From: Candidatus Altiarchaeales archaeon
GTDB lineage: Archaea > Altiarchaeota > Altiarchaeia > IMC4 > QMZM01
Assembly (NCBI GenBank): GCA_003663045.1
Contig: QMZG01000009.1
Span: forward strand, 1 to 16,212
Direction: 5' to 3'
DNA: 16,212 nucleotides
The notes beneath the pieces were generated by a model, which did not search any database, was not told the DNA's origin, and saw only the letters and a list, made by a program, of their open reading frames with translations. This document shows positions 54 to 12,919 of this stretch, piece by piece (position 1 is the stretch's first letter; every line of letters starts with the position of its first letter). The position numbers were made by a program, and so were the translations under genes.

Positions 54-237
54 ACATAGCTATAATTATATTATGATAAAGAAGATAGATCTGAAAAAGT
101 TTGACAAGTTATCCACAGAGAAACAATACGAGAATTAGTTGGATAGAGAGTAGGTTATTTGAAAATATCTGTGATTATTACCTTTATTCTTATTTTAACT
201 GAATCTGATCTTCTGAAATATATCCCACAAAAAACAA

Positions 238-258
238 ATATTTATAGGAGTTTATATA
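238..258 (+). promoter_or_regulatory. TATA-like boxes (AAATATTTATA / TTTATATA), about 24-31 nt upstream of ATG 282. Candidate archaeal promoter giving a leaderless or short-leader virB3/4 mRNA.
   Basis: TTTATATA at 251-258 is centred about 27 nt upstream of ATG 282, which is the archaeal TATA-to-TSS spacing. GGGAGA at 274-279 could alternatively act as an SD. Confidence 0.3.
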
Positions 259-281
259 ATGTTGTAATTAACAAGGGAGAA

Positions 282-1160
282 ATGCCATATAAAATTCCCA
301 CTGACATAAGATATGAGGAAAGGTTATTTGGACCATTAACCGTGAAGCAATCCATATACGCCTTAGTAGCAGCTATTTTAATTCTCTATCTTATATTTTT
401 CTCCGGTTTAGAGTTTTATGTATACATCATACCTGTCTTTTTAGTAGCTATTCTGGCTATAGGCTTTATAATGTTCAATCTGGATATGTATCTCTTAAAT
501 TATCTCTACTATATTAAGGGGATGAAAGAGTCATCATGGATTTCACCCGCTGCAAGGAAGTTGATGGAGATTAGATCAATTAGAGCGGATGCGGTATTTT
601 TGAAGGACGGTCGCGTTCTTGGTGTGATAAAGGTAAAGCCCATTAACTTTGGGGTCCTGAGTAGAGAAGACCAAGATACGGTGATATATGGATTCTTAGA
701 ATTTATAAATTCATTGAGTTTTCCTATACAGATTGTGATGAAGTCTGTTAACCTTGATTTAAGTGATTATCTAGGAGCATTGAAGAGAAGGATTGTGCAA
801 AGAGATGATAAGATGGCTCTTGCCTATTATGAACATTTTTCAGAGTATATGTATGATTATATAAAGGCCAATAAAATTAATGACAGATTATTCTACATAA
901 TAGTTCCCGCCAAAAGGTTTGCAGATGAAAAGAAGACGATCATGAATCTGGAGGATAGATGTAAGGCGGTTATTGAAACCCTGGGTCTTTCGGGAATTAT
1001 TGCAGAAAGACTGGGTAATAGGCAACTTCTTAGCCTTTATTCATCCTATTTCACAGAGTCATTTAAATTAGATGAGGAATTTGTTTCGCCTATTACCATG
1101 TATAAAAGGATGTGGCATGAAGCACCTAAAAAGGTTTATTATGTAGAAGAGGAACTATAA
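282..1160 (+). CDS. VirB3-like membrane hairpin fused to the VirB4 N-terminal domain, i.e. the N-terminal part of a split T4SS VirB3-VirB4 ATPase. The ORF track starts it at TTG 159. ATG 282 is the more likely start.
   Basis: With ATG 282 the N-terminus reads MPYKIPTDIRYEERLFGPLTVKQSIYALVAAILILYLIFFSG...IPVFLVAILAIGFIMF. A short cytoplasmic segment, the 'LFxGLT' motif and two TM helices form the classic VirB3/TrbD/PrgI layout. The following stretch AVFLKDGRVLGVIKVKPINFGVLSREDQDTVIYGFLEFINSLSFPIQIVMKS matches the conserved start of the VirB4/TrbE N-terminal domain ('dGsl..v.r..g.d...s.ee.e.....l..ll..l'). ATG 282 has GGGAG 5 nt upstream and a TATA box at -27. The longer TTG start adds a hydrophobic 41 aa of uncertain reality. 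Confidence 0.7.
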   Translation: MPYKIPTDIRYEERLFGPLTVKQSIYALVAAILILYLIFFSGLEFYVYIIPVFLVAILAIGFIMFNLDMYLLNYLYYIKGMKESSWISPAARKLMEIRSIRADAVFLKDGRVLGVIKVKPINFGVLSREDQDTVIYGFLEFINSLSFPIQIVMKSVNLDLSDYLGALKRRIVQRDDKMALAYYEHFSEYMYDYIKANKINDRLFYIIVPAKRFADEKKTIMNLEDRCKAVIETLGLSGIIAERLGNRQLLSLYSSYFTESFKLDEEFVSPITMYKRMWHEAPKKVYYVEEEL

Positions 1161-1165
1161 TCAAA

Positions 1166-3481
1166 ATGGAATTTCCAGATATAAAGCTTCCCTCTGGTTT
1201 GTCTCTACCAATGTTTAAGAAAAAGAAAAAGACAACGGTAGAAGAGGGAGGGGTGTATGAATATGAGGACAAACTCATAGGGTATTTGACATCCCCTTCA
1301 ACCATAATAAAGCATATAGATGACATTCAGATAGAGAAATTTCACAGGATAATAGCTGCCATAAATTATCCTCGCTTGGTAGAACCGGGATGGTTAACTA
1401 GGTTAATTGAGATGAATCTGGATTTTGATTTAAGTATTCATATCTCACCCTATTCCATTGAATCTACTGTGAAATTATTGGAGACTGAGATAAAGAAGCA
1501 AAAAACTGACCTTTATGGACTAAAGGCTGAGGGTAAAATTGTACCTCAGGAATTGATACAGAAGCATGAGGATACCAAGGCTTTATTGGAAGCAATTCAA
1601 AATGGTACAGAGAAGATGTTTACAATGAGCCTTTATATTGATGCTAAGGCTTATGATAAAAAGACCCTGGAAAAGGTGACGACTATGATAAAAGCAAAGA
1701 TGAGTTCTATTATGATCACCCCAAAGGTTCCTTCCTTTCAGATGTATAAAGCACTTAAGTCTGTATTGCCCATACAGGATGACCAACTCCATATAACCAG
1801 AGAGATTACATCATCCGCCGTATCTGCATGCTTTCCCTTTGCTATCACCTCTTTAGAACACCACGCTACAGGAATTCTGATAGGATTTAATCAGATAAAT
1901 AATATACCCATTATAATTGATCCATTTGAATTAAGCAATCCCAATATACTAGTTCTGGGGACATCCGGCGGGGGTAAGAGTTATACTATAAAATTACTAT
2001 TGATGAGGGAATTCATGGAGGGCGTGGATATAAATATTATTGACCCGCAGGCCGAGTATACCGACTTGGTTAAGACATTTAAAGGAAAGACCATTAGAAT
2101 TGCCCCAGATTCTGACTCCATAATAAACCCATTTGATCTTATGGGTCAACCCCTGGATGAAAAGAAGCTTTCGCTTTTAGCATTCTTTAGGGTTCTTCTT
2201 GGGGAACTAAATGAGGGACAAAGGGCTATCCTCGATGATGCCATTGACAGTACCTATGAGGATGCTGGAATTACCAAGGATCCCAAGACCTGGTCAAAGA
2301 GGCCCCCAATATTAGAAGACCTTTATGATCATATTCTACCCCTGACCAGATCCGAAAAGGAGATCATCTATAGGCCTGCTATGTCTATTGTGAATAGACT
2401 AAAGGCCTATATATTTGGACCACTAAAATTTTTGAACCAGCAGACTAAGATAGAGCTTGACAACAGGATGATTTCCTTTGATATTAGGGATATACCAGAC
2501 ATTGGTAAAGGAACTATTATGTTCCTGATCTTGGAATATGTCTATACCCAGATGAAAAGAAGCAGGAAGAGAAAGGTCCTGGTTGTTGATGAGGCGTGGA
2601 GTGTTTTTTCTGCGGGCGATGAAGGTGAGTACATACTAAGACTAGTAAAGACCTGTAGAAAATTCAACCTATCATTGGTTATGATAACTCAAGACGTGGA
2701 GGACGTTCTCACCTCAAGGGCTGGCAGGGCAGTAATGAGTAACACCGCCACTAAGATATTACTAAAGCAGGATACTACGGTAGTTGATGCTATCAGTGAG
2801 AAATTTAAACTTAATGAGGCTGAAACTAGGTTCTTGAGGATTGCCAGCGTGGGTACAGCATTATTGATTGCAGAAAATCTTCGGGTGCCAATTCATGTTC
2901 AGGCATCCCCAGAGGAGCACAGGATTATAACCACCAGACCAGATGAACTCTTAGAAATGATAAGGAGAGAGGGAAGACCAGAGGTGGATAGAGAAATGAA
3001 ACCTGAGTTGGATATTACTGACGTGGTTCAGAATAAGATTAAATTAACCAATGAACAGATAGAGGCTTTAATGGATATAGGATTTACTGAAGTTAGGGTT
3101 AATTCACTGGATGGTAAGAGTGAACTCTACATCATAAAGAATGAGACAGAGGATACTGATGAACATTTTGTCTTACAGCATCTTATCTTCAAGGAGGTTA
3201 AAAAATATACGGACAAGGTACTGATACACTACACAAAGTTGCCAGACATAACATTTGAAACTCCCGATGGGAGATTAATTGCTATAGAGGTAATCGCCGA
3301 CTTGGGTTTAAAAGCAAACATAGAATCTATGGAAGAAAAACTACCTATATTAAAGAAATATAATGATTATTTCTATGTAGTCAAAGATCCTGAGCTGAGG
3401 AAATATGAAAGCTTTGGTGAGATCCTAGTTAGAACACAGGTTCCAACCAAGATCAGATCATACTTTGAAGCTGGCAGTTAA
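1166..3481 (+). CDS. virB4: VirB4/TrbE/CagE/TraC-family type IV secretion/conjugation ATPase (C-terminal ATPase part of a split VirB4). It carries an extra roughly 170-aa C-terminal extension made of a predicted wHTH plus a restriction-endonuclease-like (PD-(D/E)xK-type) fold.
   Basis: Walker A ILVLGTSGGGKSYT (nt 1958-1981 = GTSGGGKS). Walker B KVLVVDEAWSVF (DEAW at nt 2588-2599), the VirB4/TraC hallmark. Sensor motif LVMITQDVEDV ('ITQ'). The start is 5 nt after the stop of the VirB3/VirB4-N ORF. C-terminal aa about 620-771: LTNEQIEALMDIGFTEV (HTH-like), then EHFVLQHLIFKEVKKYTDKVLIHYTKLPDITFETPDGRLIAIEVIAD. The pattern E...D...E-V resembles the core of a PD-(D/E)xK / Hjc-like nuclease fold. 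That last point is an inference. Confidence 0.88.
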   Translation: MEFPDIKLPSGLSLPMFKKKKKTTVEEGGVYEYEDKLIGYLTSPSTIIKHIDDIQIEKFHRIIAAINYPRLVEPGWLTRLIEMNLDFDLSIHISPYSIESTVKLLETEIKKQKTDLYGLKAEGKIVPQELIQKHEDTKALLEAIQNGTEKMFTMSLYIDAKAYDKKTLEKVTTMIKAKMSSIMITPKVPSFQMYKALKSVLPIQDDQLHITREITSSAVSACFPFAITSLEHHATGILIGFNQINNIPIIIDPFELSNPNILVLGTSGGGKSYTIKLLLMREFMEGVDINIIDPQAEYTDLVKTFKGKTIRIAPDSDSIINPFDLMGQPLDEKKLSLLAFFRVLLGELNEGQRAILDDAIDSTYEDAGITKDPKTWSKRPPILEDLYDHILPLTRSEKEIIYRPAMSIVNRLKAYIFGPLKFLNQQTKIELDNRMISFDIRDIPDIGKGTIMFLILEYVYTQMKRSRKRKVLVVDEAWSVFSAGDEGEYILRLVKTCRKFNLSLVMITQDVEDVLTSRAGRAVMSNTATKILLKQDTTVVDAISEKFKLNEAETRFLRIASVGTALLIAENLRVPIHVQASPEEHRIITTRPDELLEMIRREGRPEVDREMKPELDITDVVQNKIKLTNEQIEALMDIGFTEVRVNSLDGKSELYIIKNETEDTDEHFVLQHLIFKEVKKYTDKVLIHYTKLPDITFETPDGRLIAIEVIADLGLKANIESMEEKLPILKKYNDYFYVVKDPELRKYESFGEILVRTQVPTKIRSYFEAGS

Positions 3482-3521: not shown

Positions 3522-4682
3522 ATGGCGTTGATACCATTGGGTGAGAAAGAGGCTGAAGGGGAGGTCTATGTCCCAGAGGAGAAAAAAACAGGGATAGATA
3601 TCATAGAAAAATTCATAGAAAAATGGAGGGATGGGATATTTACCATCCTCGTTATCGCTTTTATAACAGCAATTTTTATTCCAGATATATTCCTGGGGGA
3701 TATTGGGATTAATCTTAAGTTGATAATTTTTGTTATAATAATTTTTTTAATCATTAGGATATCAGTTGTAAGATTACTTGAGTATGAAAGAGCAGTTGTA
3801 TTCCGACTGGGTAAATTTCACAGGGTAGCTGGTCCGGGTTGGGAATTGATTTTTCCAATAGTGGAGAAGTTTGTGAGGACGGATCTGAGATTAAAGGTTT
3901 ATACCATAGAACCGCAGGAGATAGTCACAAAGGATAAGGTAAGATTCTTGGTCTCTCCGGAGATATTCATGTACGTTTCTAATCCAAAGGATGCGGTGAT
4001 AAATGTGGACAATTACGAGAAGGCAGTTCTTTCTTATGTAAATTCAGCCCTGACCCATGTGGGCGGTGATTCAACCTCCGATTACATAGTAGCGCATATG
4101 GATGATATAAGCGAGATGCTGGAGCACAGTGTTGAAAAAATATCCACATTACCGGGAAGGGAGTGGGGGGTAATTGTACCAAAAATTAAGTTGGGGTTCA
4201 TCAGATTTCCAGATGAGGTTCAGTCCGCTATGCATAAAAGGGTCGCAGCCGGGCAACTAAAGTTGGCGGCACATGAAAAGGCAGATGCTACTAAGATTGA
4301 AATAGACGCCATAAGAGAGGCTGGCTCAAAACTTACTGATCCAGCAATTACCTATCTGTACCTAGAAGCATTGGATAAGATAGCTAAAGGAAAAGCTACG
4401 AAGATGATATTGCCTCTAGAAATATCCAAGATTGCAGAGAGCATAACCAAGAGAACTGGTGCTTTACCAGAAACACCTGAGGTCAGTTTACCCAAAGATT
4501 TAATTCGGAAATATAAGGAGTCTGTGGATAGGTATGATAAAAAACTGAAGGAGATAGAGGATAAACTGGCTAAAAGGGAGATAAAAGAAAGGAAAGAAAA
4601 GTCAGAGAAAAAAGAAACTGGGGAAGAACTTAATGAATACAAGGAGAGGATTAGAGAGATAAAAAAGAGGATCGGTATATAA
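3522..4682 (+). CDS. SPFH / Band-7 (stomatin/prohibitin-like) membrane protein with an N-terminal TM anchor and a C-terminal K/E-rich coiled coil.
   Basis: N-terminal TM segments FTILVIAFITAIFIPDIF / LKLIIFVIIIFLIIRI are followed by the canonical stomatin signature VVRLLEYERAVVFRLGKFHRVAGPGWELIFPIVEKFVRTDLRLKVYTIEPQEIVTKDKV. The pattern 'V.EYERaVvfRlGk....PG...i.P..d.v..vdlr......p.q.v.TKD.v' is classic SPFH. The tail EIEDKLAKREIKERKEKSEKKETGEELNEYKERIREIKKRI is a coiled coil. Confidence 0.85.
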   Translation: MALIPLGEKEAEGEVYVPEEKKTGIDIIEKFIEKWRDGIFTILVIAFITAIFIPDIFLGDIGINLKLIIFVIIIFLIIRISVVRLLEYERAVVFRLGKFHRVAGPGWELIFPIVEKFVRTDLRLKVYTIEPQEIVTKDKVRFLVSPEIFMYVSNPKDAVINVDNYEKAVLSYVNSALTHVGGDSTSDYIVAHMDDISEMLEHSVEKISTLPGREWGVIVPKIKLGFIRFPDEVQSAMHKRVAAGQLKLAAHEKADATKIEIDAIREAGSKLTDPAITYLYLEALDKIAKGKATKMILPLEISKIAESITKRTGALPETPEVSLPKDLIRKYKESVDRYDKKLKEIEDKLAKREIKERKEKSEKKETGEELNEYKERIREIKKRIGI

Positions 4683-4853: not shown

Positions 4854-5126
4854 ATGGATGATAAAATCGATACACAGAATATCTACATCGATCCAGAGAA
4901 AAAATTTGTTACTATAAGAGTAAATCCAAGGATTTATAAGATTCATACTATTATGAACGCTGCGGATGAATTCATAGAGACGGCAGAATTGGTAATAGAC
5001 GGAGATCCAGAAAAGGAGATCATCGTCAAGATGATCCCAAAGAAGAAGGATCTGACCGAGGAAGAATTGCTAGAATATGCCTACAAATTTAACACTTATT
5101 TGATATCCCATAGTGCTACGAGATAG
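4854..5126 (+). CDS. Small hypothetical protein (90 aa), acidic, no TM. It sits in a 170-nt / 100-nt intergenic context, implying its own promoter.
   Basis: ORF MDDKIDTQNIYIDPEKKFVTIRVNPRIYKIHTIMNAADEFIETAELVIDGDPEKEIIVKMIPKKKDLTEEELLEYAYKFNTYLISHSATR. TATA-like TATAAAA at 4841-4847 and TTGATTAATTT at 4813-4823 lie upstream. No recognisable motif. Coding status rests on ORF length and codon usage similar to its neighbours. Confidence 0.5.
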   Translation: MDDKIDTQNIYIDPEKKFVTIRVNPRIYKIHTIMNAADEFIETAELVIDGDPEKEIIVKMIPKKKDLTEEELLEYAYKFNTYLISHSATR

Positions 5127-5226: not shown

Positions 5227-6990
5227 ATGGACGACTTTGAAAGATTTTGGATGGAAAGGGAAAGAGAAGAACTGGAGATAGAACCGGAGAAACTTAGAAA
5301 GGTTCTATCGAAGATACTTAAAGAGTTTAATCTGGAGTTAAAATCAATTGAAGAAACCGAAGAGAAAGACCTGGTAGCTACATGCTTAGATAAATTGGGG
5401 AGGGAGGTAACATCCTTAATAAGAATTCGTGCCGATACCGAAGGGATCGAAAGGGATGATGTAGAGGACTTTTATGAGGATATGGTAGAGAAAAGGGCTG
5501 TAGCTGCTATCTTTATCACTACCTCTTATTTTTTTAAGGATGCCAAGGATTTTGTAGAAGGGCTTCCCATAAGGCTGGTTGATAGAACACAGTTATCAGA
5601 AATTATAGCTGAGATCGAGGCCATAAAGGTTGAGAAGGCATTTGTTTCTGGGATGAATGACTCACAGGTGGTGAAATATTTCCAAAAAAAGACAAAGGGG
5701 AGGGTATTAGGTAGATTTGGAATGCCTGAGAATATCGAAGAGATAGATCGCAGGTATCTACCCATGGGGTTTTTCAGTCTCAAGAAAATCGAAGAAAACG
5801 TTGAAAGGAGAAAATTTGCATACATAGATCTCAGCAGTGGCGATCTCTTCTATATAGATGAAGGACGTATAAAGAAGGATGATATCATAAAGAATATTCT
5901 TAATCTTCCTCCAGAATCCAGGGAACACCTCATGGATTTGATTGAGCATGGAGAACTGCCTCATGAACATATAGATGGGAAGTATTTGCTCATACTGAAA
6001 AAAAGAGGGTTATTAGGAGAGTATGAAGAGGGTAGAGGGGGTGGAATCCTCAGTACTATGGTAAATGGAATCATGAGTTTAGTGATGATAATAATCGATA
6101 CAGCAGGGGAATTTATTGGCATTCCAAGATCAGAACATGTTCCAAAGGGGGGTACTGCTCAACCAAAGAGAGTTAAAGCGAGAGTCAATATCCCCATCTT
6201 TGATCAAGCCTATAATCTGGAGAATTTTATGGAGGTTTCAAATGCCAGTGAGGAATTTGATCCGGATCCCATGAAGTATAAACCAGAGGAGGTAGAGGAT
6301 ATTCTGAGGAAAATCACCGGGTATGAGGTAAAATTCGAGAATATGGTTTATTTTCCCTATTACCTGTGCAAATATTCTGGTCCAAGGGGGGAGAGGTACA
6401 GAAGGTTATATTCAGTGAAATTTAAAGAATTTTTTCCGAGGCCGGGAACATATAATGTATTGTATCATATTATAGACAAGTTTCCAGAATTGCCTTATCT
6501 CATACTGGCTGCTCTTTATATCCATTTTAATATCAGTGAAACGGAAAAATTAATGCATGTATTCTCTTCTTCCTTTCTTTTCCTGATTATATGCGTTTTC
6601 ACAGGGACGTTGTTAAAGGCTATCTTCAAGACGGAAAGAGTAACACCCTACTACGGTGTATCAGTTTTTAGATACGGATTTCCATCCATGCACAGTTTAG
6701 CCTCCATCGGTGCTATAGGGTTTGTATATTTTATAGAACCCATGGGGCCTTTACTTTCACTAGTACTGGTACCAATAGGTCTGCTCTATGTCTATTCCAG
6801 AATCAAGATAGGCGCTCACAGCGTGACCGATGTTATTGGGGGGGCAATCATTGGCCTTATCATGGGGATAATCTCTGGTATGCATCTACTGAAGATTCAT
6901 CTTCCATATCCTTTGGAGTTGATATCCACCACACTTTTTGTTATCATGCTATTTATCTTTATTATAATTAGAATTAAGTATATACACTAA
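5227..6990 (+). CDS. Fusion protein with an N-terminal Mrr-type restriction-endonuclease-fold domain (Mrr_cat-like), a central linker/wHTH-like region, and a C-terminal polytopic PAP2-superfamily (type 2 phosphatidic-acid phosphatase / haloperoxidase fold) membrane domain.
   Basis: N-terminus: LSKILKEFNLELKSIEETEEKDLVATCLDKLGREVTSLIRIRADTEGIERDDVEDFYEDMVEKRAVAAIFITTSYFFKDAKDFVEGLPIRLVDRTQLSEII. This follows the Mrr_cat pattern (D..D core, 'QcKr'-like LIRIR, 'gi.vTTs.Ft.eA..fa....i.LidgeeL'). Note R replaces the usual catalytic K. The C-terminal TM bundle carries the three PAP2 motifs: KAIFKTERVTP (KX6R-like, aa 464-474), FPSMHS (PSGH-type, nt about 6682-6693), and YSRIKIGAHSVTD (SRX5HX3D, nt 6796-6831). 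Confidence 0.8.
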   Translation: MDDFERFWMEREREELEIEPEKLRKVLSKILKEFNLELKSIEETEEKDLVATCLDKLGREVTSLIRIRADTEGIERDDVEDFYEDMVEKRAVAAIFITTSYFFKDAKDFVEGLPIRLVDRTQLSEIIAEIEAIKVEKAFVSGMNDSQVVKYFQKKTKGRVLGRFGMPENIEEIDRRYLPMGFFSLKKIEENVERRKFAYIDLSSGDLFYIDEGRIKKDDIIKNILNLPPESREHLMDLIEHGELPHEHIDGKYLLILKKRGLLGEYEEGRGGGILSTMVNGIMSLVMIIIDTAGEFIGIPRSEHVPKGGTAQPKRVKARVNIPIFDQAYNLENFMEVSNASEEFDPDPMKYKPEEVEDILRKITGYEVKFENMVYFPYYLCKYSGPRGERYRRLYSVKFKEFFPRPGTYNVLYHIIDKFPELPYLILAALYIHFNISETEKLMHVFSSSFLFLIICVFTGTLLKAIFKTERVTPYYGVSVFRYGFPSMHSLASIGAIGFVYFIEPMGPLLSLVLVPIGLLYVYSRIKIGAHSVTDVIGGAIIGLIMGIISGMHLLKIHLPYPLELISTTLFVIMLFIFIIIRIKYIH

Positions 6991-8987
6991 TCATCATCTC
7001 TTCCAAATTCCTCTTCTTTCCTTTCTCTGGTATCTATACGGACATCAATAATGCTTCTCAAACCATCTTCTGTGTTAAACACAATAATTCCACTGTATAA
7101 TCTTCTTTCTATATCCTCTTTTGTAGTGATCACCATTTTTATTATCTTCTCTTCACCCCTCTCCAATCTGAATCTATTTTCCTTATAGTTTATAAATATT
7201 CCAGCTGTAAGTAGTTCTTCATCATATACTATAACCCTTGAGAATGAATGATCCTCATCGTTTCTTAAGGCGATTTCTACCAATCTGGTCTCACCGGGCT
7301 GAACATTCACAGTAAGGGATGGTGGTACCGGTTTTTGTGGCAGGGTTGCCGTGACTATCCCCTTTCTCCTCTTCCTGGGAACCTCGGATGGAGCACGAGA
7401 ACGTATCTCATCCATCATGTATGGCTTTGCCTTCTCTTCTGAGACAACCCTGAATCCGTATTCATCCCCGATATATTTTTCTATTGAGGTCTTTCTCTCC
7501 CTCGCTGCTTTGACAAGTAATTCATAAAGATTTTCATTTCTCTGAATCTTTTCTATGGGTATCTCGCCCTTGATATTCGCCATACCTCTTAATGCGTCCT
7601 TTAGGGTTGCCCTGATTGGCCTAATTGGAGCATGAGAGGGTATCTTCTCTTCTCTTGGCTTAACCCTCTTAGTGACTCCGGGTTTGATGTAAGGAACTCC
7701 CACTCTTACACCTTTTTTAGAAGTAATTTTGAATCCGTATTGTATATTAACAAATTCCTCTACTGACATCCTTTTCTCCCCTGCAACACGAATTAGTGAG
7801 TTATGAAGCCTCTCATTTTTTTGGATTTCCTCCAGGGATATTTCACCCCTGATGTTGGCCATCTTTTTTAATGTAGAACCAATCTCCTCTCTGGACAACT
7901 CTCCTTTCTCAACGACCCTCTCATAGCCCCTCACACCAACCGCTGCTCTTGGTTCTTCTTCGGGCTTTTCTTCCTCTTTTTTCTCAAGTTCTATCTCAGG
8001 TTTCTCGAAGAATACTATCATCGGCGCCAGAGACTCGATAAAGATTACTGAGATGACAGCAAATGCACCAAACCAATTCATTAACCCGAATATGATCAAT
8101 GGCGATATTATCAGTAGAAGGGCCCCAGAGATATTTACCAGATCAGAGATTTCCGGTATGAGGGTAGTAAGAATCTGACTACCTACAGCTATTATTACCA
8201 ATGCAAGGGCATATCCTACCGGAAGAAAGATCCAGAAGAGCAGTTGCTTTATGATTATCTTTCCTATGTTCTTTGTAAGATAGAACAAACTGAGGAATAT
8301 TGCAAATGGAAAAAATATGATTAAAAAGATTAAAAGGATGTATCTAGCAACTAAGATGGCAAATATACCTAAAGTTAAGATAAATGTGAATATCAAAAAG
8401 GGTATACTTATTGCTATATCAATCCAGATAAAATCTACCGTCCTATAATTTAGATAATCTATGGCATTCTTATATGTAATCCCTATATCTAAGGGCCCCT
8501 GGGATAGAATACCCCTAGTTAGAACCTGCGATACATCGAGTAGTAACTGCATTATATGTAGGGAAAGTGAAATGATAACCATACCCACCAACAGCCTTAA
8601 CATCATGGACTTTGCCCTTGATCTGCCTCTTGGTGATCCTGAAAAGAACATCAGATAGATCCCTGTCAGTACTATGGCTGCGATATAGAATGGCTCCAGG
8701 ACTTTGACGAAGTAACCCCCAATATCTATTATCATCGGGTCTCTTAACGGAATTTCTTCCAAGAGATATGCATGAAGGTTATCATAGATTTCATCCTTCA
8801 TAACATCTATCTTGCCCCAGATCATTCCCAAGAATGTCAACCTTCTTGATAGTTCTGAAAAGAATTTTAGTATGGCATCGGCAGTAGACTCAAGAAATTC
8901 ACCAAATTCTGGCGGAATTGCGTATGCTACAGATGATAAGAGTAATGATACCGCGAATATAAATATTATAAATGTTCTACATTTCAT
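6987..8987 (-). CDS. Polytopic membrane protein, paralog 5 of 5 (VirB6/TrbL/TcpH/CedA-like by architecture). It has a roughly 340-aa hydrophilic C-terminal extension containing an internally duplicated roughly 65-aa module. It is the last gene of the minus-strand operon.
   Basis: Signal peptide MKCRTFIIFIFAVSLLLSSVAYA. Family motifs VLEPFYIAAIVLTGIYLMFFSGSPRGRSRAKSMML and FFPFAIFLSLFYLTKNIGKIIIKQLLFWI, with at least 6 TM helices. After aa about 325 comes an acidic linker EKPEIELEKKEEEKPEEEPR. Two repeats follow: (aa 371-435) STLKKMANIRGEISLEEIQKNERLHNSLIRVAGEKRMSVEEFVNIQYGFKI and (aa 460-523) ATLKDALRGMANIKGEIPIEKIQRNENLYELLVKAARERKTSIEKYIGDEYGFRV. A predicted beta-rich domain and a DDD tail end the protein. 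The stop overlaps the convergent Mrr-PAP2 stop. Confidence 0.8.
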   Translation of the reverse strand: MKCRTFIIFIFAVSLLLSSVAYAIPPEFGEFLESTADAILKFFSELSRRLTFLGMIWGKIDVMKDEIYDNLHAYLLEEIPLRDPMIIDIGGYFVKVLEPFYIAAIVLTGIYLMFFSGSPRGRSRAKSMMLRLLVGMVIISLSLHIMQLLLDVSQVLTRGILSQGPLDIGITYKNAIDYLNYRTVDFIWIDIAISIPFLIFTFILTLGIFAILVARYILLIFLIIFFPFAIFLSLFYLTKNIGKIIIKQLLFWIFLPVGYALALVIIAVGSQILTTLIPEISDLVNISGALLLIISPLIIFGLMNWFGAFAVISVIFIESLAPMIVFFEKPEIELEKKEEEKPEEEPRAAVGVRGYERVVEKGELSREEIGSTLKKMANIRGEISLEEIQKNERLHNSLIRVAGEKRMSVEEFVNIQYGFKITSKKGVRVGVPYIKPGVTKRVKPREEKIPSHAPIRPIRATLKDALRGMANIKGEIPIEKIQRNENLYELLVKAARERKTSIEKYIGDEYGFRVVSEEKAKPYMMDEIRSRAPSEVPRKRRKGIVTATLPQKPVPPSLTVNVQPGETRLVEIALRNDEDHSFSRVIVYDEELLTAGIFINYKENRFRLERGEEKIIKMVITTKEDIERRLYSGIIVFNTEDGLRSIIDVRIDTRERKEEEFGRDDD

Positions 8988-10110
8988 TTTCTATTCTTTT
9001 CCCGCTCTCAAAGTATGCCGTTGTCATTGCTGCAGGCTTCAGGAAGATGGCCGATATCAGAGCAAGAGAACTTATCCAGCTCATTATTCCCATGGCTATT
9101 AATGGGGCAAGGATTAACATTAAAAATCCAGAGAATACCACAAAGGTGTTTAAATCCAGCAATACCCCTGTGGCAGGTTCCGGGATAGAGAATATGCTAT
9201 TATAGGCAATCCAGGTAACCAGGAGTATTATAGCATCGATAACTGGGACAAATATCCAGATAATTGTTTGATTAAGAAGGATTCTCCCAACCCTTTTGGT
9301 AGCAAAGAAGGAATAAAGCAGGATCGTAAATGGGAAGAATATTGTTAGGAGAATCACCATAAAATATCTGATCGCCAGCACCATGAGAACACCGGCCGGT
9401 AGGAGAATGAGTAGGGCTAAGAATGGAAGTCCAATAAAGATCTCAAAAAATGTCACTACCAAGAAGTATTTTATAAAGAATTCCTTAGCCAACATAAACA
9501 TCTCAACGTTTATGGGAGATTCCGGGCTGGGAATTGATAAAAGAACTGATGTAAGATAGTGGGAGGTCTCTAAGAGCATCTCTATTATGGGTAACGTTAA
9601 TGTGATAATCCCAAGCCCGAGAATCAGTTTTATGAGGGTGGATTTTGCCCGTGCCCTGCCCAGTGGCGATCCGGAAACGAAAAGGAGATATACTGAGGTT
9701 ATCAGTATGGCAAGCGCATAAAATGGTTGAAGTATACTGATAAAGAGATTTAGGATCCCCAAAACTGCAGGGGCCCTTAACAGTGCTGGTGTATCCTTTA
9801 TTGTATTTCCCTGAAAAAGATCCCTCTGGTATATGAAGGGGATGAGGTTTTCAGAATATATCTTCATTAGCGCATCAATTCTATCTGCGATATAAAAATA
9901 GAAATCTATCCGCCTCGTTATCTCCATGCCCATCTTTGGGTACTCTCTCGAGACCTCATCCATCAGATCCTTCAACTTTGATGCTAACGACGGTTCAAGT
10001 GCGGGGGAAGCATGCTGTGCCGTGACATGGATGATACTAACCGTAACCAGAAGCATGACAATTGCTAATCTTCCCATTATTTTTTCTTTACCTTTTCCAT
10101 TCATTTTCAA
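8977..10110 (-). CDS. Polytopic membrane protein, paralog 4 of 5 (VirB6/TrbL-like candidate). The track start is TTG 10110. ATG at 10104 (MNGKGKEK...) or 10077 (MGRLAIV...) is the more likely start.
   Basis: Signal peptide or TM GRLAIVMLLVTVSIIHVTAQHA. Family motifs ILQPFYALAILITSVYLLFVSGSPLGRARAKSTLIKL and FFPFTILLYSFFATKRVGRILLNQTIIWI, with multiple TM helices. It abuts the upstream paralog with no gap. GGGGG lies 8-12 nt upstream of ATG 10104. Confidence 0.8.
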   Translation of the reverse strand: MKMNGKGKEKIMGRLAIVMLLVTVSIIHVTAQHASPALEPSLASKLKDLMDEVSREYPKMGMEITRRIDFYFYIADRIDALMKIYSENLIPFIYQRDLFQGNTIKDTPALLRAPAVLGILNLFISILQPFYALAILITSVYLLFVSGSPLGRARAKSTLIKLILGLGIITLTLPIIEMLLETSHYLTSVLLSIPSPESPINVEMFMLAKEFFIKYFLVVTFFEIFIGLPFLALLILLPAGVLMVLAIRYFMVILLTIFFPFTILLYSFFATKRVGRILLNQTIIWIFVPVIDAIILLVTWIAYNSIFSIPEPATGVLLDLNTFVVFSGFLMLILAPLIAMGIMSWISSLALISAIFLKPAAMTTAYFESGKRIENEM

Positions 10111-11064
10111 TTAAGGCAAAAACCCCCTGAATAATCTTACAAATATGAAGGGGGTAAGCATTAACATCAACAAACCGGCCAATTCCATGATGAATTTTAA
10201 TCCAGTAGGAACGATAAAGCTCGTTATTAAATCTGTGAGATTCATTCCTATCGCTATTATAACGAGCACGAATGCCATCGCAGCCTGAGCTAATGTCCAG
10301 AGAAGTGTTTGTTCCAGTAGCAATCTTCCCATTCCCCGGGAGGGTAAAAAGGAATAGAGAAGGATTGTAAATGGCAATATCATGGAGAGGATAGCTACCA
10401 TGTAGAACCTCAATTTTAGGATAAGGAATATCCCCTCCAAAAGAGCATAAGGGATAAAGAGGAGGGGAATTCCGGCCCTCTCCACGCCCAGTGACCAGCC
10501 ACTGGCACTGTGCGACATTATATGCCTGCCCATGTTGAGTATATATTCCGTTGCATGTATAAAAGGATCATTCTTGTTTACCGGAGCCAATGATAGAATA
10601 TTTAGGGTAATTGCCTCCGAGATACCAAAGAATATCATCAGAATATAGGGCGAAACGGATATGATTGCAATGCCGATAATCAACAGTAATAGGGAGGATT
10701 TTGCACTGGCTCTCTTTTCTGGTGAGCCAGAAAAGAATATCAGGTAGATTCCAATGAGGATTATTACTGTAACATATATTGCCTGTAAAATGGAGATGAA
10801 GTAATCCATAATCTTCTTGGTATTTGATTCCAGTATTGAGGGATTCTCCAGTATCAGATCATCTATATTCCTAAGTGTTTCTATCTTTTCCATTATCAAC
10901 CTTTCGTAATTTTCAGATACCTTTTCTCTAAGGAATGCCTCCGCTGCCTCTTCGGTCAGTGGATAGATGATCCCCGATACCGAATTTGACAAAAACAGCA
11001 ATATTACAATAACTATCAATAATGAAATTCCTCTGATTTTTGGGTTGATTGAATCTTTTTTCAT
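10111..11064 (-). CDS. Polytopic membrane protein, paralog 3 of 5 (VirB6/TrbL-like candidate).
   Basis: Signal or TM LLIVIVILLFLSNSVSG. Motifs ILQAIYVTVIILIGIYLIFFSGSPEKRASAKSSLLLL and ILPFTILLYSFLPSRGMGRLLLEQTLLWT. C-terminal ...FVRLFRGFLP. The start ATG (11062-11064) overlaps the TGA of the upstream paralog (ATGA-type coupling). GGAGA lies 8 nt upstream. Confidence 0.82.
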   Translation of the reverse strand: MKKDSINPKIRGISLLIVIVILLFLSNSVSGIIYPLTEEAAEAFLREKVSENYERLIMEKIETLRNIDDLILENPSILESNTKKIMDYFISILQAIYVTVIILIGIYLIFFSGSPEKRASAKSSLLLLIIGIAIISVSPYILMIFFGISEAITLNILSLAPVNKNDPFIHATEYILNMGRHIMSHSASGWSLGVERAGIPLLFIPYALLEGIFLILKLRFYMVAILSMILPFTILLYSFLPSRGMGRLLLEQTLLWTLAQAAMAFVLVIIAIGMNLTDLITSFIVPTGLKFIMELAGLLMLMLTPFIFVRLFRGFLP

Positions 11065-11990
11065 GGTAAAAATCTCCTAACCATTGTTATTAGCATTATG
11101 GGTGATATGATTACCACCAGAAATGTTGATATACCTATTATAGTTCTTAGATCCCCGCTAAAGCCTAAAATAGTGATTCCCATATTTGCAGTCACTATAA
11201 GCAAGGCAATTATTACCTGGAGGAATGTCCACAATATGGTCTGTTCCACTATAAACCTGCCAATGTCCCTCGTTATGTTAAATGTATACAGGAAGATGCC
11301 TATGGGGAATATCAATGTGAAGATCAAAAGAAGGAGATATCTCAGAGTAAGAACAGAAAAGATACCTATTATCATGAAGAATATGAATAAAAGGAAGAGG
11401 TGACCCCCTTCGAATGTGGTTAATGTGGATGCAGTAAAGATTCTCACAAGATCATTTATTGTGTCCAGGAATATCCTCCCTATCCCCACTGGACTCTTAT
11501 CCAGTATATCCTTAGACAATTCATAGGAAACATTTGAAATCAGTTGCAGTATGGGGAAGGTGAGGGAAACAATTACCATACTGGCAATCAACTTGGGAAA
11601 GAGTAATTTCGCTTTTCTTCTACCCTTTGGCGATCCGGAAAGAAACATTAGGTAGATTCCAGTAATTAATATTGCCATAACATATAATGGTTCTAAGACG
11701 GTGATGAAGTATTCTATTATATGATTTATCAGATGATCATCAAGTGGGGGATTCATCAGGATTAAATCACGCAGACTATCAAAGATTTCCAATAATCCAT
11801 GACCTACCGGTTTTCCAATAAACGTCCCATGGAGCAGGTAATAGATAAGCAGGATGAATATCCCCCTGAATTTTAATTCGATTGCTTCATGCTTCACGGC
11901 CATTTCCCCAAACCATTCTGAGGTTATTGAGGGGATTAATATGATGCAGATGCATACCCCCATTATCAATTTTTTATTTATTTTTCTCAT
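11061..11990 (-). CDS. Polytopic membrane protein, paralog 2 of 5 (VirB6/TrbL-like candidate).
   Basis: Signal or TM LIMGVCICIILIPSITSE. Motifs VLEPLYVMAILITGIYLMFLSGSPKGRRKAKLLFPKL and FPIGIFLYTFNITRDIGRFIVEQTILWT. C-terminal ...MVRRFLP. 4-nt overlaps at both ends (11061-11064, 11987-11990). Confidence 0.82.
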   Translation of the reverse strand: MRKINKKLIMGVCICIILIPSITSEWFGEMAVKHEAIELKFRGIFILLIYYLLHGTFIGKPVGHGLLEIFDSLRDLILMNPPLDDHLINHIIEYFITVLEPLYVMAILITGIYLMFLSGSPKGRRKAKLLFPKLIASMVIVSLTFPILQLISNVSYELSKDILDKSPVGIGRIFLDTINDLVRIFTASTLTTFEGGHLFLLFIFFMIIGIFSVLTLRYLLLLIFTLIFPIGIFLYTFNITRDIGRFIVEQTILWTFLQVIIALLIVTANMGITILGFSGDLRTIIGISTFLVVIISPIMLITMVRRFLP

Positions 11991-12919
11991 GGTAAGAAAT
12001 CCCTCAAAAAGCTTACGGTAGCTATAGGGACCACTATCAGGGCTATAATTCCTCCCAATTCCAACAAAATCAATACCTCACGCGTCAACAAGGAGGAAAA
12101 CACCACGATTATGGTAGCTATTGAGGTTAATGCTATTGCCTCCGTTACCTGTACAGAAATCCAGAGCAGTGTTTGTTCCATCATCCTTCTGCCTATCCCT
12201 CTGGTAGGCATGAAGAGATAGAGGAATATCGTCAATGGGAATACTATGGTAAATAGAGCAACGACGATATACCTTGAAAATATAACAAACAGGAGTGCAG
12301 AAATAATTATCAGAGAAAGAAACAGAAATGGTACCGATGCCTCTGAAGAATACCATGTGATATTATGAAATTTTGACATAAGATAATCTATTGGATTTAT
12401 GTCTTTATCTAAGGGTAGTAGAATGCCTACAGGATCACCCGGTCCCTGAGATATTATACCATCCGATAGGGTTTCAGAAAAACTGAAAATCACACTCATT
12501 ATATACGGTGAGATAGCAATTAATACCATTGCTATAATAATTCCCGGTAATAAAGATTTTATCTTTGCCCTGATTCCGGGCGAACCAGAAAAAAATATCA
12601 TATATATCCCACTGAAGATTATGGCAAAGACAAACAATGGCTCCATGATGGTCACAATATATCTGGTAATACCCAAGACATCTGGATTCATTGGGTTCGG
12701 ATTCAGTAGCAATATCTCCACAAAATGATCCCTGCATATATCCATGGCATATACTACAAGATCCTCACCAATCTTGTTAAGATTCATTCTCAGAAGAAAA
12801 TCTAATAGTACCTTAACTGCTGCCGCTTCCCCAATGAAAGCTGACGATGATGATGCGAGGAATAAAACTACTATAACCGGGAATGTTAATTTAAACAAGA
12901 TCTTCCTTATTGACTTCAT
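11987..12919 (-). CDS. Polytopic membrane protein, paralog 1 of 5 (VirB6/TrbL-like candidate).
   Basis: Signal peptide LTFPVIVVLFLASSSSAFIGEAAA. Motifs IMEPLFVFAIIFSGIYMIFFSGSPGIRAKIKSLLPGI (nt about 12553-12594) and VFPLTIFLYLFMPTRGIGRRMMEQTLLWI. C-terminal ...SFLRDFLP. Start ATG is at 12917-12919, 12 nt after the upstream gene. Confidence 0.82.
   Translation of the reverse strand: MKSIRKILFKLTFPVIVVLFLASSSSAFIGEAAAVKVLLDFLLRMNLNKIGEDLVVYAMDICRDHFVEILLLNPNPMNPDVLGITRYIVTIMEPLFVFAIIFSGIYMIFFSGSPGIRAKIKSLLPGIIIAMVLIAISPYIMSVIFSFSETLSDGIISQGPGDPVGILLPLDKDINPIDYLMSKFHNITWYSSEASVPFLFLSLIIISALLFVIFSRYIVVALFTIVFPLTIFLYLFMPTRGIGRRMMEQTLLWISVQVTEAIALTSIATIIVVFSSLLTREVLILLELGGIIALIVVPIATVSFLRDFLP

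Follow-up and report, generated by a model that had tools for sequence, protein, structure and literature searches.

A predicted restriction-endonuclease-like domain at the C-terminus of the VirB4-type ATPase in a relaxase-less T4SS-like locus of Altiarchaeota

The VirB4-type ATPase of a chromosomal T4SS-like locus of Altiarchaeota carries, beyond its ATPase body, a C-terminal tail whose predicted structure has the restriction-endonuclease (REase) fold of the PD-(D/E)xK superfamily. With a probability of about one half, we take this tail for a nuclease module that is tethered to the VirB4 motor of a relaxase-less T4SS-like apparatus and processes or binds DNA. The window is the whole stretch of DNA that was analysed, 16,212 nt in length, and its relevant features are the following.

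159 to 1160, plus strand: separate gene for a VirB3/PrgI-like membrane segment and a TraC-like (VirB4 N-terminal-type) domain (PrgI 32.7 bits, above the cut-off; PF26593; positions 22-278 of the Mbov_0397 VirB4 profile)
1166 to 2935, plus strand: VirB4/TraC-type ATPase body, aa 1-590 (Pfam P-loop_TraG, AAA_10 and DUF87; NCBIfam CD1110; Walker motifs)
2936 to 3022, plus strand: acidic linker, aa 591-619, about 29 residues (pI 4.57; pLDDT 61-68; variable, with indels)
3023 to 3139, plus strand: small beta-alpha-beta-beta subdomain, aa 620-658 (secondary structure from the model, pLDDT >95)
3140 to 3478, plus strand: predicted PD-(D/E)xK restriction-endonuclease-like core, aa 659-771 (topology alpha-beta-beta-beta-alpha-beta(-alpha-beta-alpha))
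6987 to 12919, minus strand: five paralogous polytopic membrane proteins of 666, 377, 317, 309 and 310 aa (VirB6/TrbL- and T4SS-pilin-like)

The region 1166-3481 of the plus strand is a single ORF coding for a VirB4/TraC-type ATPase of 771 aa. In a profile scan of this protein, P-loop_TraG matched with 88.8 bits over aa 256-554 (Pfam cut-off 25.8), and both AAA_10, with 58 bits, and DUF87 were also above their Pfam cut-offs; the Walker A motif GTSGGGKS is at aa 265 and the Walker B motif VLVVDE at aa 471. The best NCBIfam match of the ATPase body was the CD1110-family VirB4 (NF045971), with 306.7 bits over aa 52-579, which is below the equivalog cut-off of 325 bits, and TIGR00929 (VirB4_CagE) gave 136 bits versus a cut-off of 643. 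Since no curated cut-off of a named VirB4 family was reached, the protein is, on profile scores, a member of a divergent VirB4-like clade outside the named equivalogs.

The NCBIfam VirB4, TraC and CedB/CedD profiles all stop at aa 579-588 of the query, having run to their own C-terminal ends (position 737 of 752 for CD1110, 893 of 894 for Mbov_0397 and 524 of 527 for CedD), so that about 180 residues lie beyond them; a sequence-only reading of this DNA had proposed an extension of about 170. Codons 600-771 of the ORF, with the stop codon, correspond to positions 2963-3481, and the three peptide strings quoted in that reading were all found in the translation. A chance extension of the ORF is ruled out at the sequence level, because about 120 homologous proteins carry the tail in alignable form, with identities of 26-100%, and an exhaustive HMM search with it retrieved 259 cluster representatives. 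Neither single-sequence nor profile searches gave a significant match of the tail in Pfam, NCBIfam or PDB sequences; the best PDB sequence matches, ubiquitin and enterotoxin B, were considered as chance matches.

A usable AF2 model of the tail was obtained from a diverse alignment of 44 sequences (pLDDT 92.3), while with only 6 close sequences the pLDDT was 42. The linker, which is acidic as had been noticed from the sequence (pI 4.6), is the low-confidence region of the model, the rest being above 90, and it varies with indels among the homologs except for a conserved P592-D593. The winged helix-turn-helix that had been read into aa 620-658 was rejected, because this subdomain is modelled as beta-alpha-beta-beta, with a first strand at 621-623, one helix at 629-637 and two further strands at 641-646 and 652-657, whereas a winged helix has a core of three helices: LTNEQIEALM forms its single helix, DIGFTEVRV is a beta-strand in a hairpin, and no HTH family of Pfam matched. 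The residues conserved in the subdomain are L635, F640, E642 and G650.

The remaining part of the model has the alpha-beta-beta-beta-alpha-beta core fold of the PD-(D/E)xK superfamily, and the best structural matches were nearly all nucleases of the restriction-endonuclease fold, so that the nuclease-like fold suggested by the sequence-only reading is borne out by structure prediction. Sub-threshold Pfam matches of family members were to VRR_NUC, DUF4143, Hjc, AHJR-like, HSDR_N_2 and pPIWI_RE_REase, that is, to the REase clan. Two specific relationships were discarded. Precisely, a significant match to the archaeal Holliday junction resolvase Hjc with an E...D...ExK motif was not obtained; and a duplication of the Mrr_cat domain encoded nearby was discarded since the alignment of the family profile with hhalign had a probability of 0.1, hence no relationship.

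Conservation was evaluated in three sets, namely 123 Altiarchaeota sequences, the diverse set of 44 sequences and 32 stand-alone homologs. The candidate active-site positions are given below, with the counts in these sets in the same order.

3164 to 3166, plus strand: codon of H667, first core helix (115 of 123; at least 90%; 32 of 32)
3242 to 3247, plus strand: codons of P693-D694 ('PD'), just ahead of the second core strand, 695-698 (D694 in 121 of 123; at least 90%; 32 of 32)
3287 to 3295, plus strand: codons of E708-V709-I710, third core strand (704-710), at the (D/E)xK position (E708 in 123 of 123)
3338 to 3340, plus strand: codon of K725, second core helix (715-729), candidate relocated catalytic lysine (119 of 123; at least 90%; 32 of 32)

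H667, P693-D694, E708 and K725 are therefore near-invariant down to about 21% identity, at canonical active-site positions of the fold, and E708 is the sole fully invariant column of the diverse set. In PD-(D/E)xK enzymes the canonical catalytic positions are an Asp just before core strand 2 and an Asp or Glu in strand 3 (PMC3424549), and in the tail D694 begins core strand 2 while E708 lies in core strand 3. These two residues, kept in all or nearly all of a range of sequences that share just 21-65% identity, are probably a metal-binding pair. The acidic spacing pointed out by the sequence-only reading thus holds for the residues of its D(ITF) and E-V segments, D694 and E708, but not for the lysine that should complete the motif two residues past E708: position 710 is Ile in this protein, E, I or V across Altiarchaeota, and E in DPANN versions, where the motif is EVETG with an invariant acidic residue. 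In the PD-EXX-K variant the lysine has moved to the second core helix, with Pa4535 (PDB 1y0k) as a precedent (PMC3424549), and K725, as modelled, would fit this variant. An acidic residue is missing at both 710 and 712 in 26 of the 123 Altiarchaeota sequences, which could reflect a relaxed catalytic constraint.

The missing lysine with Ile at 710 counts against the preferred reading, as does the overall acidity of the module (pI 5.2), which disfavours non-specific DNA binding. The same two observations speak for a rival reading, a degenerate and catalytically dead REase-fold domain that would cap the VirB4 hexamer in a structural, oligomerisation or regulatory role, or offer another protein a place to dock. 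PD-(D/E)xK domains often persist as inactive binding or structural units, and inactive homologs are well documented (PMC3424549); moreover, the tail evolves faster than the ATPase body, with a mean identity of 55% versus 70%. However, D694, E708, K725 and H667 are almost always kept from Altiarchaeota to the stand-alone DPANN proteins and sit exactly at the metal-binding and catalytic positions of the fold (PMC3424549), which a merely structural role does not easily account for, and we regard a dead domain as rather unlikely.

As regards the neighbourhood, the gene 159-1160, whose TraC-like PF26593 domain derives from precomputed annotation, is directly upstream of the ATPase gene; in DPANN relatives the PrgI, TraC-like and VirB4 parts are fused in one protein of 1000-1100 aa. 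The five membrane paralogs are 30-41% identical to each other and have syntenic counterparts in a second locus (L011). The one encoded at 10111-11064 matched T4SS_pilin in Pfam with 28.4 bits, the 666-aa protein had a weak match to TrbL_3, and the five probably belong to the channel and the pilus of this T4SS-like system. With a TrbC/T4SS_pilin gene upstream of the VirB4-type ATPase gene, along with the PrgI and TraC-like gene, and with the TrbL_3/T4SS_pilin-like membrane proteins downstream, the locus displays the association with VirB2-, VirB3- and VirB6-like genes that is expected of a VirB4/TraC-type T4SS ATPase. It is chromosomal, with housekeeping genes on both sides in a contig of 1.56 Mb. 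The cluster also encodes another REase-type protein, Mrr_cat-PAP2 according to Pfam.

A Pfam scan of the ten largest ORFs of the window gave no MOB relaxase, T4SS-DNA_transf or TraG-D_C match; the 309- and 310-aa paralogs (11061-12919), judged by precomputed annotation instead of the Pfam scan, belong to no relaxase or VirD4 family. The annotation of L001-L003 and L011 shows neither VirD4 nor a relaxase or integrase in the 10 kb to each side, and the absence of VirD4 and relaxase remarked on from the sequence extends therefore beyond the window.

The module was observed in two settings only, attached to VirB4 in Altiarchaeota and DPANN, and in DPANN also as a stand-alone protein with a membrane anchor. 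A scan of the genome collection with close sequences as query found Altiarchaeota-type MAGs only. Among 146 new profile matches, 35 had a recognisable VirB4 ATPase sequence, 71 were short proteins or fragments without a clear assignment, most short matches being indistinguishable from VirB4 fragments, and 40 were other proteins; of 10 longer matches examined with Pfam, 7 proved to be fragments of VirB4 or fusions of the PrgI-TraC-VirB4 type. Because these 35 matches keep a VirB4 sequence and 7 of the 10 scanned are of VirB4 type, the link of the module to the VirB4 motor appears ancient and maintained. The true stand-alone forms adjoin neither T4SS nor recognisable defence genes, and on these grounds we rejected a general stand-alone defence nuclease; since they lack adjoining T4SS genes, the job of the module would not be intrinsically tied to the T4SS.

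The same structural and conservation evidence could also be read as an active nuclease for uptake or degradation, cutting incoming or host DNA that leaves the motor. Its purpose could be recombination, the exclusion or restriction of foreign DNA or, in DPANN with their reduced genomes, the salvage of nucleotides. DNA import is known from the related archaeal Ced system (PMC9905601), the module is widespread among DPANN lineages, which the retrieved literature describes as host-dependent, and Mrr_cat-PAP2 is a further REase-type protein of the cluster. On the other hand, Mrr_cat-PAP2 is missing from the syntenic L011 and the Altiarchaeota locus has an ordinary chromosomal setting, so we consider this role as distinctly improbable.

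In Woesearchaeota-type contigs the stand-alone homologs adjoin genes of Xer-like tyrosine recombinases at 3 of the 6 loci examined. VirB4, FtsK and HerA are usually grouped in one FtsK-HerA ATPase superfamily, and FtsK carries a C-terminal DNA-binding domain; a module that acts as partner of site-specific tyrosine recombinases, as FtsK gamma does with XerD, recognising or cleaving DNA structures at recombination sites with a role in chromosome resolution or element excision, would be consistent with this. Three loci are few, however, and proximity to an integrase may merely mark mobile islands; the neighbouring recombinases score below the XerA cut-off and neither the window nor L011 has a recombinase close to its VirB4 locus. 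We judge this partnership very improbable.

Returning to a DNA-handling module tethered to the motor, the 771-aa protein would drive, as its VirB4-type motor ATPase, a minimal T4SS-like apparatus encoded on the chromosome of Altiarchaeota, which further comprises a VirB2-like pilin, the VirB3/TraC-like protein and the VirB6-like channel paralogs. The acidic linker would tether the beta-alpha-beta-beta subdomain and the PD-(D/E)xK-fold domain to the C-terminus of the motor. By analogy with solved bacterial T4SS structures, the C-terminal ATPase ring of VirB4 would face the cytoplasm, and because of this orientation the tethered modules would sit where the hexamer opens to the cytoplasm. Their most likely task in that place, we infer, would be to bind DNA and to nick or cleave it, and so to create or hold the end which the motor passes into the channel; they would stand in for the missing step of relaxase and coupling protein much as NurA works with HerA. 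In its strongest form, an active motor-tethered endonuclease would replace both relaxase and coupling protein, with VirB4 cutting or nicking the DNA hydrolytically as well as pumping it through the VirB6-like channel; we hold this form to be doubtful. If true, conjugation-like transfer in Altiarchaeota and DPANN would rely on a way of processing DNA that is distinct and self-contained.

We found no description of a fusion of VirB4 with a nuclease-like domain in literature searches, the FtsK-HerA comparative genomics of Iyer et al. 2004 being outside their scope, and no Pfam or NCBIfam model for the domain family, its membrane-anchored stand-alone forms included. Archaeal conjugative plasmids and the Ced/Ted systems have yielded no relaxase, and the cutting of DNA and its hand-over to the channel have been called an open conundrum (PMC9905601). 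The conserved nuclease-fold module on the VirB4 motor of Altiarchaeota and DPANN is a concrete candidate for relaxase-less DNA handling, and it argues that the T4SS-like loci of uncultivated archaea, widespread and uncharacterised in these lineages, handle nucleic acid and are not limited to pilus assembly or protein secretion.

Compared with known systems, the protein resembles the VirB4/TraC/TrbE ATPases of MPF-FATA type (CD1110 and Mbov_0397 families) in its P-loop_TraG/AAA_10 body, its Walker motifs, the VirB3/PrgI and TraC-like part upstream and the pilin- and VirB6-like neighbours, but the MPF-FATA profiles end before the 180-aa REase-like tail and, unlike those systems, the Altiarchaeota locus has no VirD4 or relaxase partner. 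The Ced/Ted systems (CedB/CedD/TedB) are likewise archaeal, chromosomal, minimal sets of VirB2, VirB4 and VirB6 homologs without relaxase (PMC9905601); CedB and CedD, however, which one paper places in the HerA clade of the FtsK-HerA superfamily, are only weakly similar to the 771-aa protein (57-62 bits), with profiles that end at the ATPase domain and no nuclease-like tail, and their hosts are Crenarchaeota, whereas the tailed VirB4 is found in Altiarchaeota and DPANN.

The modelled tail shares its core topology with the PD-EXX-K nucleases (Pa4535, PDB 1y0k), Hjc, VRR-NUC and NucS, and with the PD-EXX-K variant also the placement of three residues, with Asp ahead of strand 2, Glu in strand 3 and Lys in the second core helix. 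It differs from PD-(D/E)xK nucleases in matching no Pfam REase family significantly, in its additional N-terminal beta-alpha-beta-beta unit and in the conserved His on helix 1; moreover, those nucleases are free-standing or attached to helicases, whereas the domain of Altiarchaeota is fused to a secretion ATPase. As for the general layout, HerA-NurA, the motor and nuclease of archaeal end resection (PMC9905601), and FtsK with its gamma domain likewise place a module for DNA handling where the ring of a hexameric ATPase opens. However, NurA is a separate protein of RNase-H fold and FtsK gamma a winged helix without a catalytic site, whereas the tail described here, with its predicted REase fold, is covalently fused to the motor.

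The ORF at 1166-3481 (+ strand) is single and uninterrupted and encodes a protein of 771 aa, in the translation of which all three peptides quoted in an earlier, sequence-only reading of this DNA are present. The region that this reading had assigned to an extra C-terminal part, 2963-3481, covers codons 600-771 and the stop codon. In its body, the protein is an ATPase of the VirB4/TraC type: the Pfam models P-loop_TraG (aa 256-554), AAA_10 and DUF87 were all matched above their cut-offs, Walker A is GTSGGGKS at residue 265 and Walker B VLVVDE at residue 471, and the top NCBIfam match was CD1110, a family of conjugal ATPases similar to VirB4 (306.7 bits, just below its equivalog cut-off). Since the C-terminal ends of the VirB4, TraC, TrbE, CedB and CedD profiles all map to residues 579-588, about 180 residues lie beyond the known VirB4 end, as had been claimed. 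This tail gave no match in Pfam, NCBIfam or PDB sequences, and no model of Pfam (2025) or NCBIfam (2026) covers it.

To judge from its homologs, the tail is conserved and no accidental extension. Searching a database with the whole protein gave about 120 clusters, 750-806 aa in length, all aligned through the tail (43-100% identity) and belonging, wherever named, to Candidatus Altiarchaeota/Altiarchaeales; four relatives of about 1100 aa also aligned through the tail, at 26-31% identity. Among the GTDB species representatives we found 13 loci, every one in an Altiarchaeota-type MAG. Mean identity was 55% in the tail and 70% in the ATPase body, the tail hence being the faster-evolving part. In 123 sequences, the following tail residues were conserved: N659 (122/123), D665 (118/123), H667 (115/123), H688 (119/123), D694 (121/123), F697 (121/123), E708 (123/123), K725 (119/123), Y732 (121/123) and R756 (109/123). 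When 1.84 billion cluster representatives were searched exhaustively with a profile, 259 proteins reached E ≤ 0.001; in a diverse alignment of 44 sequences (21-65% identical to the query) E708 is invariant, and H667, D694, F697, K725 and R756 are conserved in at least 90%.

The tail was modelled by AlphaFold2 with the 44-sequence alignment as input (model residue n being protein residue n+590), with a pLDDT of 92.3 and a pTM of 0.83; with six close sequences the pLDDT was 42. The modelled parts are:

Residues 591-619: linker, of low model confidence
Residues 620-658: small unit, with strand 621-623, helix 629-637 and strands 641-646 and 652-657
Residues 659-771: core, with helix 665-679, strands 685-687, 695-698 and 704-710, helix 715-729 and strand 734-739, then alpha-beta-alpha

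The restriction-endonuclease-like fold has the topology alpha-beta-beta-beta-alpha-beta (PMC3424549), which is also the order of the core elements in the model. Foldseek, a check that the sequence-only reading had proposed for its nuclease-like domain, did return a nuclease-type fold: YaeQ, NucS/EndoMS, Hjc, VRR-NUC, Card1 and EcoO109I against the PDB (probabilities ≤ 0.98, E-values only about 1e-3), endonucleases and VRR-NUC proteins against viral models. The three structure searches concur on a restriction-endonuclease-like fold, and the sub-threshold Pfam matches of family members belong to the REase clan (VRR_NUC, DUF4143, Hjc, AHJR-like, HSDR_N_2, pPIWI_RE_REase). On these three lines, the predicted fold of the core is well supported; a close relationship to any single nuclease family is not. 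The winged helix-turn-helix of the same reading does not agree with the model, in which one helix (TNEQIEALM) is followed by a beta-hairpin and DIGFTEVRV is mostly strand; we rejected a winged helix in residues 620-658, as the predicted unit is beta-alpha-beta-beta without a three-helix core.

The canonical fold has its catalytic Asp where core strand 2 begins, and its (D/E)xK on strand 3 (PMC3424549). In the model P693-D694 immediately precedes strand 695-698 and E708 is within strand 704-710, hence the "D(ITF)" and "E-V" acidic residues first pointed out from the sequence alone occupy the canonical catalytic positions. The proposed PD-(D/E)xK likeness thus held for the fold and for the Asp and Glu positions, but not for the canonical Lys: at position 710 (+2) the protein has Ile, where Altiarchaeota as a whole have E, I or V and the DPANN relatives have E (motif EVETG). 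H667, together with D665/E666, is placed on the first core helix, from which an extra catalytic residue comes in many families of the fold. The near-invariant K725 is placed on the second core helix, the same Lys relocation described by Steczkiewicz et al. as "PD-EXX-K" in Pa4535 (PDB 1y0k; PMC3424549). From the topology, we infer that H667, D694, E708 and K725 would converge in space. The absence of the canonical Lys counts against activity, as do the loss of the acidic residue at 710 in this protein (26 of the 123 sequences have none at either 710 or 712) and the acidity of the domain (pI 5.2). An inactivated REase-fold domain, with a cap or docking role, is a rather unlikely alternative.

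The profile search had added 146 new representatives, which fall into three groups. VirB4 ATPase sequence is still recognised by an Altiarchaeota ATPase profile in 35 of them; another 71 are short, with ≤ 60 residues ahead of the module; the remaining 40 are different proteins, whose N-terminal part is longer and unmatched. Most of the short ones are unassignable; some visibly start with the VirB4 C-terminal tail and are therefore gene fragments. By Pfam scan, seven of ten longer matches were fragmentary or full-length VirB4, and one further carried an intein. Inteins occur in some homologs of this VirB4: in P0127 (1426 aa) Intein_splicing and a LAGLIDADG_3 homing endonuclease lie inside the ATPase domain and the C-terminal module is retained; two others (P0113, P0118) have a precomputed Intein_splicing match each. 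Full-length tail-bearing VirB4 proteins have 750-1100 aa (named examples in Diapherotrites and Nanoarchaeota), and in the longer ones PrgI, TraC-like domain, VirB4 and tail are fused into a single protein. On the DPANN-type contig with such a 1099-aa fusion (L012), 18069-22253, 5-9 kb downstream, encodes XPB-type helicase, YgjP-like and DUF790 proteins, followed by a serine resolvase; we take the DUF790 protein to be of the Bax1 nuclease family.

A second architecture (about 270-370 aa; named examples in Woesearchaeota and Micrarchaeota) starts with hydrophobic helices, one to four in number but mostly two, and continues with the module. All 32 of the stand-alone proteins examined retain H, PD, F, K and Y, and nearly all retain E-x-E-T-G. 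Loci with such homologs, in DPANN, include:

L004, 10001-10954: stand-alone homolog
L006, 6176-7021: stand-alone homolog
L010, 1935-2900: stand-alone homolog
L008 and L009: stand-alone homologs

At six loci examined, no T4SS genes adjoin the stand-alone gene; a SLFN_AlbA_2/HATPase_c_4 ATPase protein does at three, and Xer-like tyrosine recombinase genes do at three (best NCBIfam match recomb_XerA_Arch, below its cut-off). These Xer-like neighbours suggest a recombinase-linked role, which we nevertheless regard as very improbable. Occurring both fused to VirB4 and membrane-anchored on its own, the module has evolved as a unit of its own in Altiarchaeota and DPANN. Its place is always at the membrane or close to it, most frequently on VirB4.

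The gene order around VirB4 is common to three independent assemblies:

Upstream of the window: TrbC/T4SS_pilin-like gene
159-1160: PrgI+TraC-like gene, directly before VirB4
3522-4682, + strand: SPFH/Band-7 protein, a membrane scaffold whose long coiled-coil tail is charged, directly after VirB4
4854-5126, + strand: conserved 90-aa ORF, after the SPFH/Band-7 gene
5227-6990, + strand: Mrr_cat-PAP2 fusion, 587 aa, with N-terminal Mrr_cat (45.7 bits) and C-terminal multi-pass PAP2 phosphatase domain
6987-12919, - strand: five tandem paralogous polytopic membrane proteins of 666 (TrbL-like), 377, 317, 309 and 310 aa

The Mrr_cat-PAP2 protein is a second membrane-anchored REase-fold protein at this locus, inside the T4SS-like cluster. 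The five paralogs are 30-41% identical, have in common a FSGSPxGRxxAK-type motif and weakly match T4SS_pilin/TrbL_3; VirB6/VirB2-like components are unusually expanded in this array. At locus L002 (1-8119), upstream of the window's left edge, the pilin gene is preceded by genes for a giant protein, 6758 aa long in the full contig, and for a nucleotidyltransferase and a PMT_2 glycosyltransferase. This is reminiscent of nanohaloarchaea, in which giant 'SPEARE' surface proteins are encoded beside VirB4-like ATPases (PMC10266531). A more distant syntenic relative (L011, 67% identity), which on its 1.56-Mb contig is flanked by eRF1/PheRS genes on one side and by additional pilin-like genes on the other, has the same core genes without the SPFH, 90-aa ORF and Mrr_cat-PAP2 genes; the first two are therefore accessory. 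The locus is chromosomal, with a minimal VirB2/B3/B4/B6 set, and, as noted at first sight, lacks VirD4 and relaxase: by Pfam and annotation, neither these nor an integrase was found within 10 kb on either side, in the window and related loci.

In solved bacterial T4SS structures, VirB4 touches components in the membrane with its N-terminal part, and its C-terminal ATPase ring is in the cytoplasm; the module, tethered to the very end of the protein by an acidic linker of about 29 residues, would in that case be positioned at the ring's cytoplasmic opening. The reading with the best support, to which we give a probability of about 0.5, is that it may be a DNA-handling unit that binds DNA, probably nicks or cleaves it and delivers an end to the motor, standing in functionally for the missing relaxase/coupling-protein step. 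That it is instead an active nuclease for import, degradation or exclusion seems improbable, more so than an inactivated domain.

In full-text literature searches we found no description of a nuclease-fold domain on VirB4 or of a T4SS in Altiarchaeota; papers on archaeal Ced/Ted, Patescibacteria T4SS and nanohaloarchaea likewise describe neither. What appears to be new is a VirB4 motor with a fused module of predicted PD-EXX-K type. It is a candidate answer, open to direct test, to the long-standing question of how DNA is processed by archaeal T4SS-like systems that lack a relaxase. The logic of motor plus DNA-handling module resembles that of HerA with NurA. The archaeal Ced/Ted DNA-exchange systems have a minimal VirB2/VirB4/VirB6-type composition (PMC9905601); the locus described here has the same composition, whereas its sequence kinship to them is only distant.
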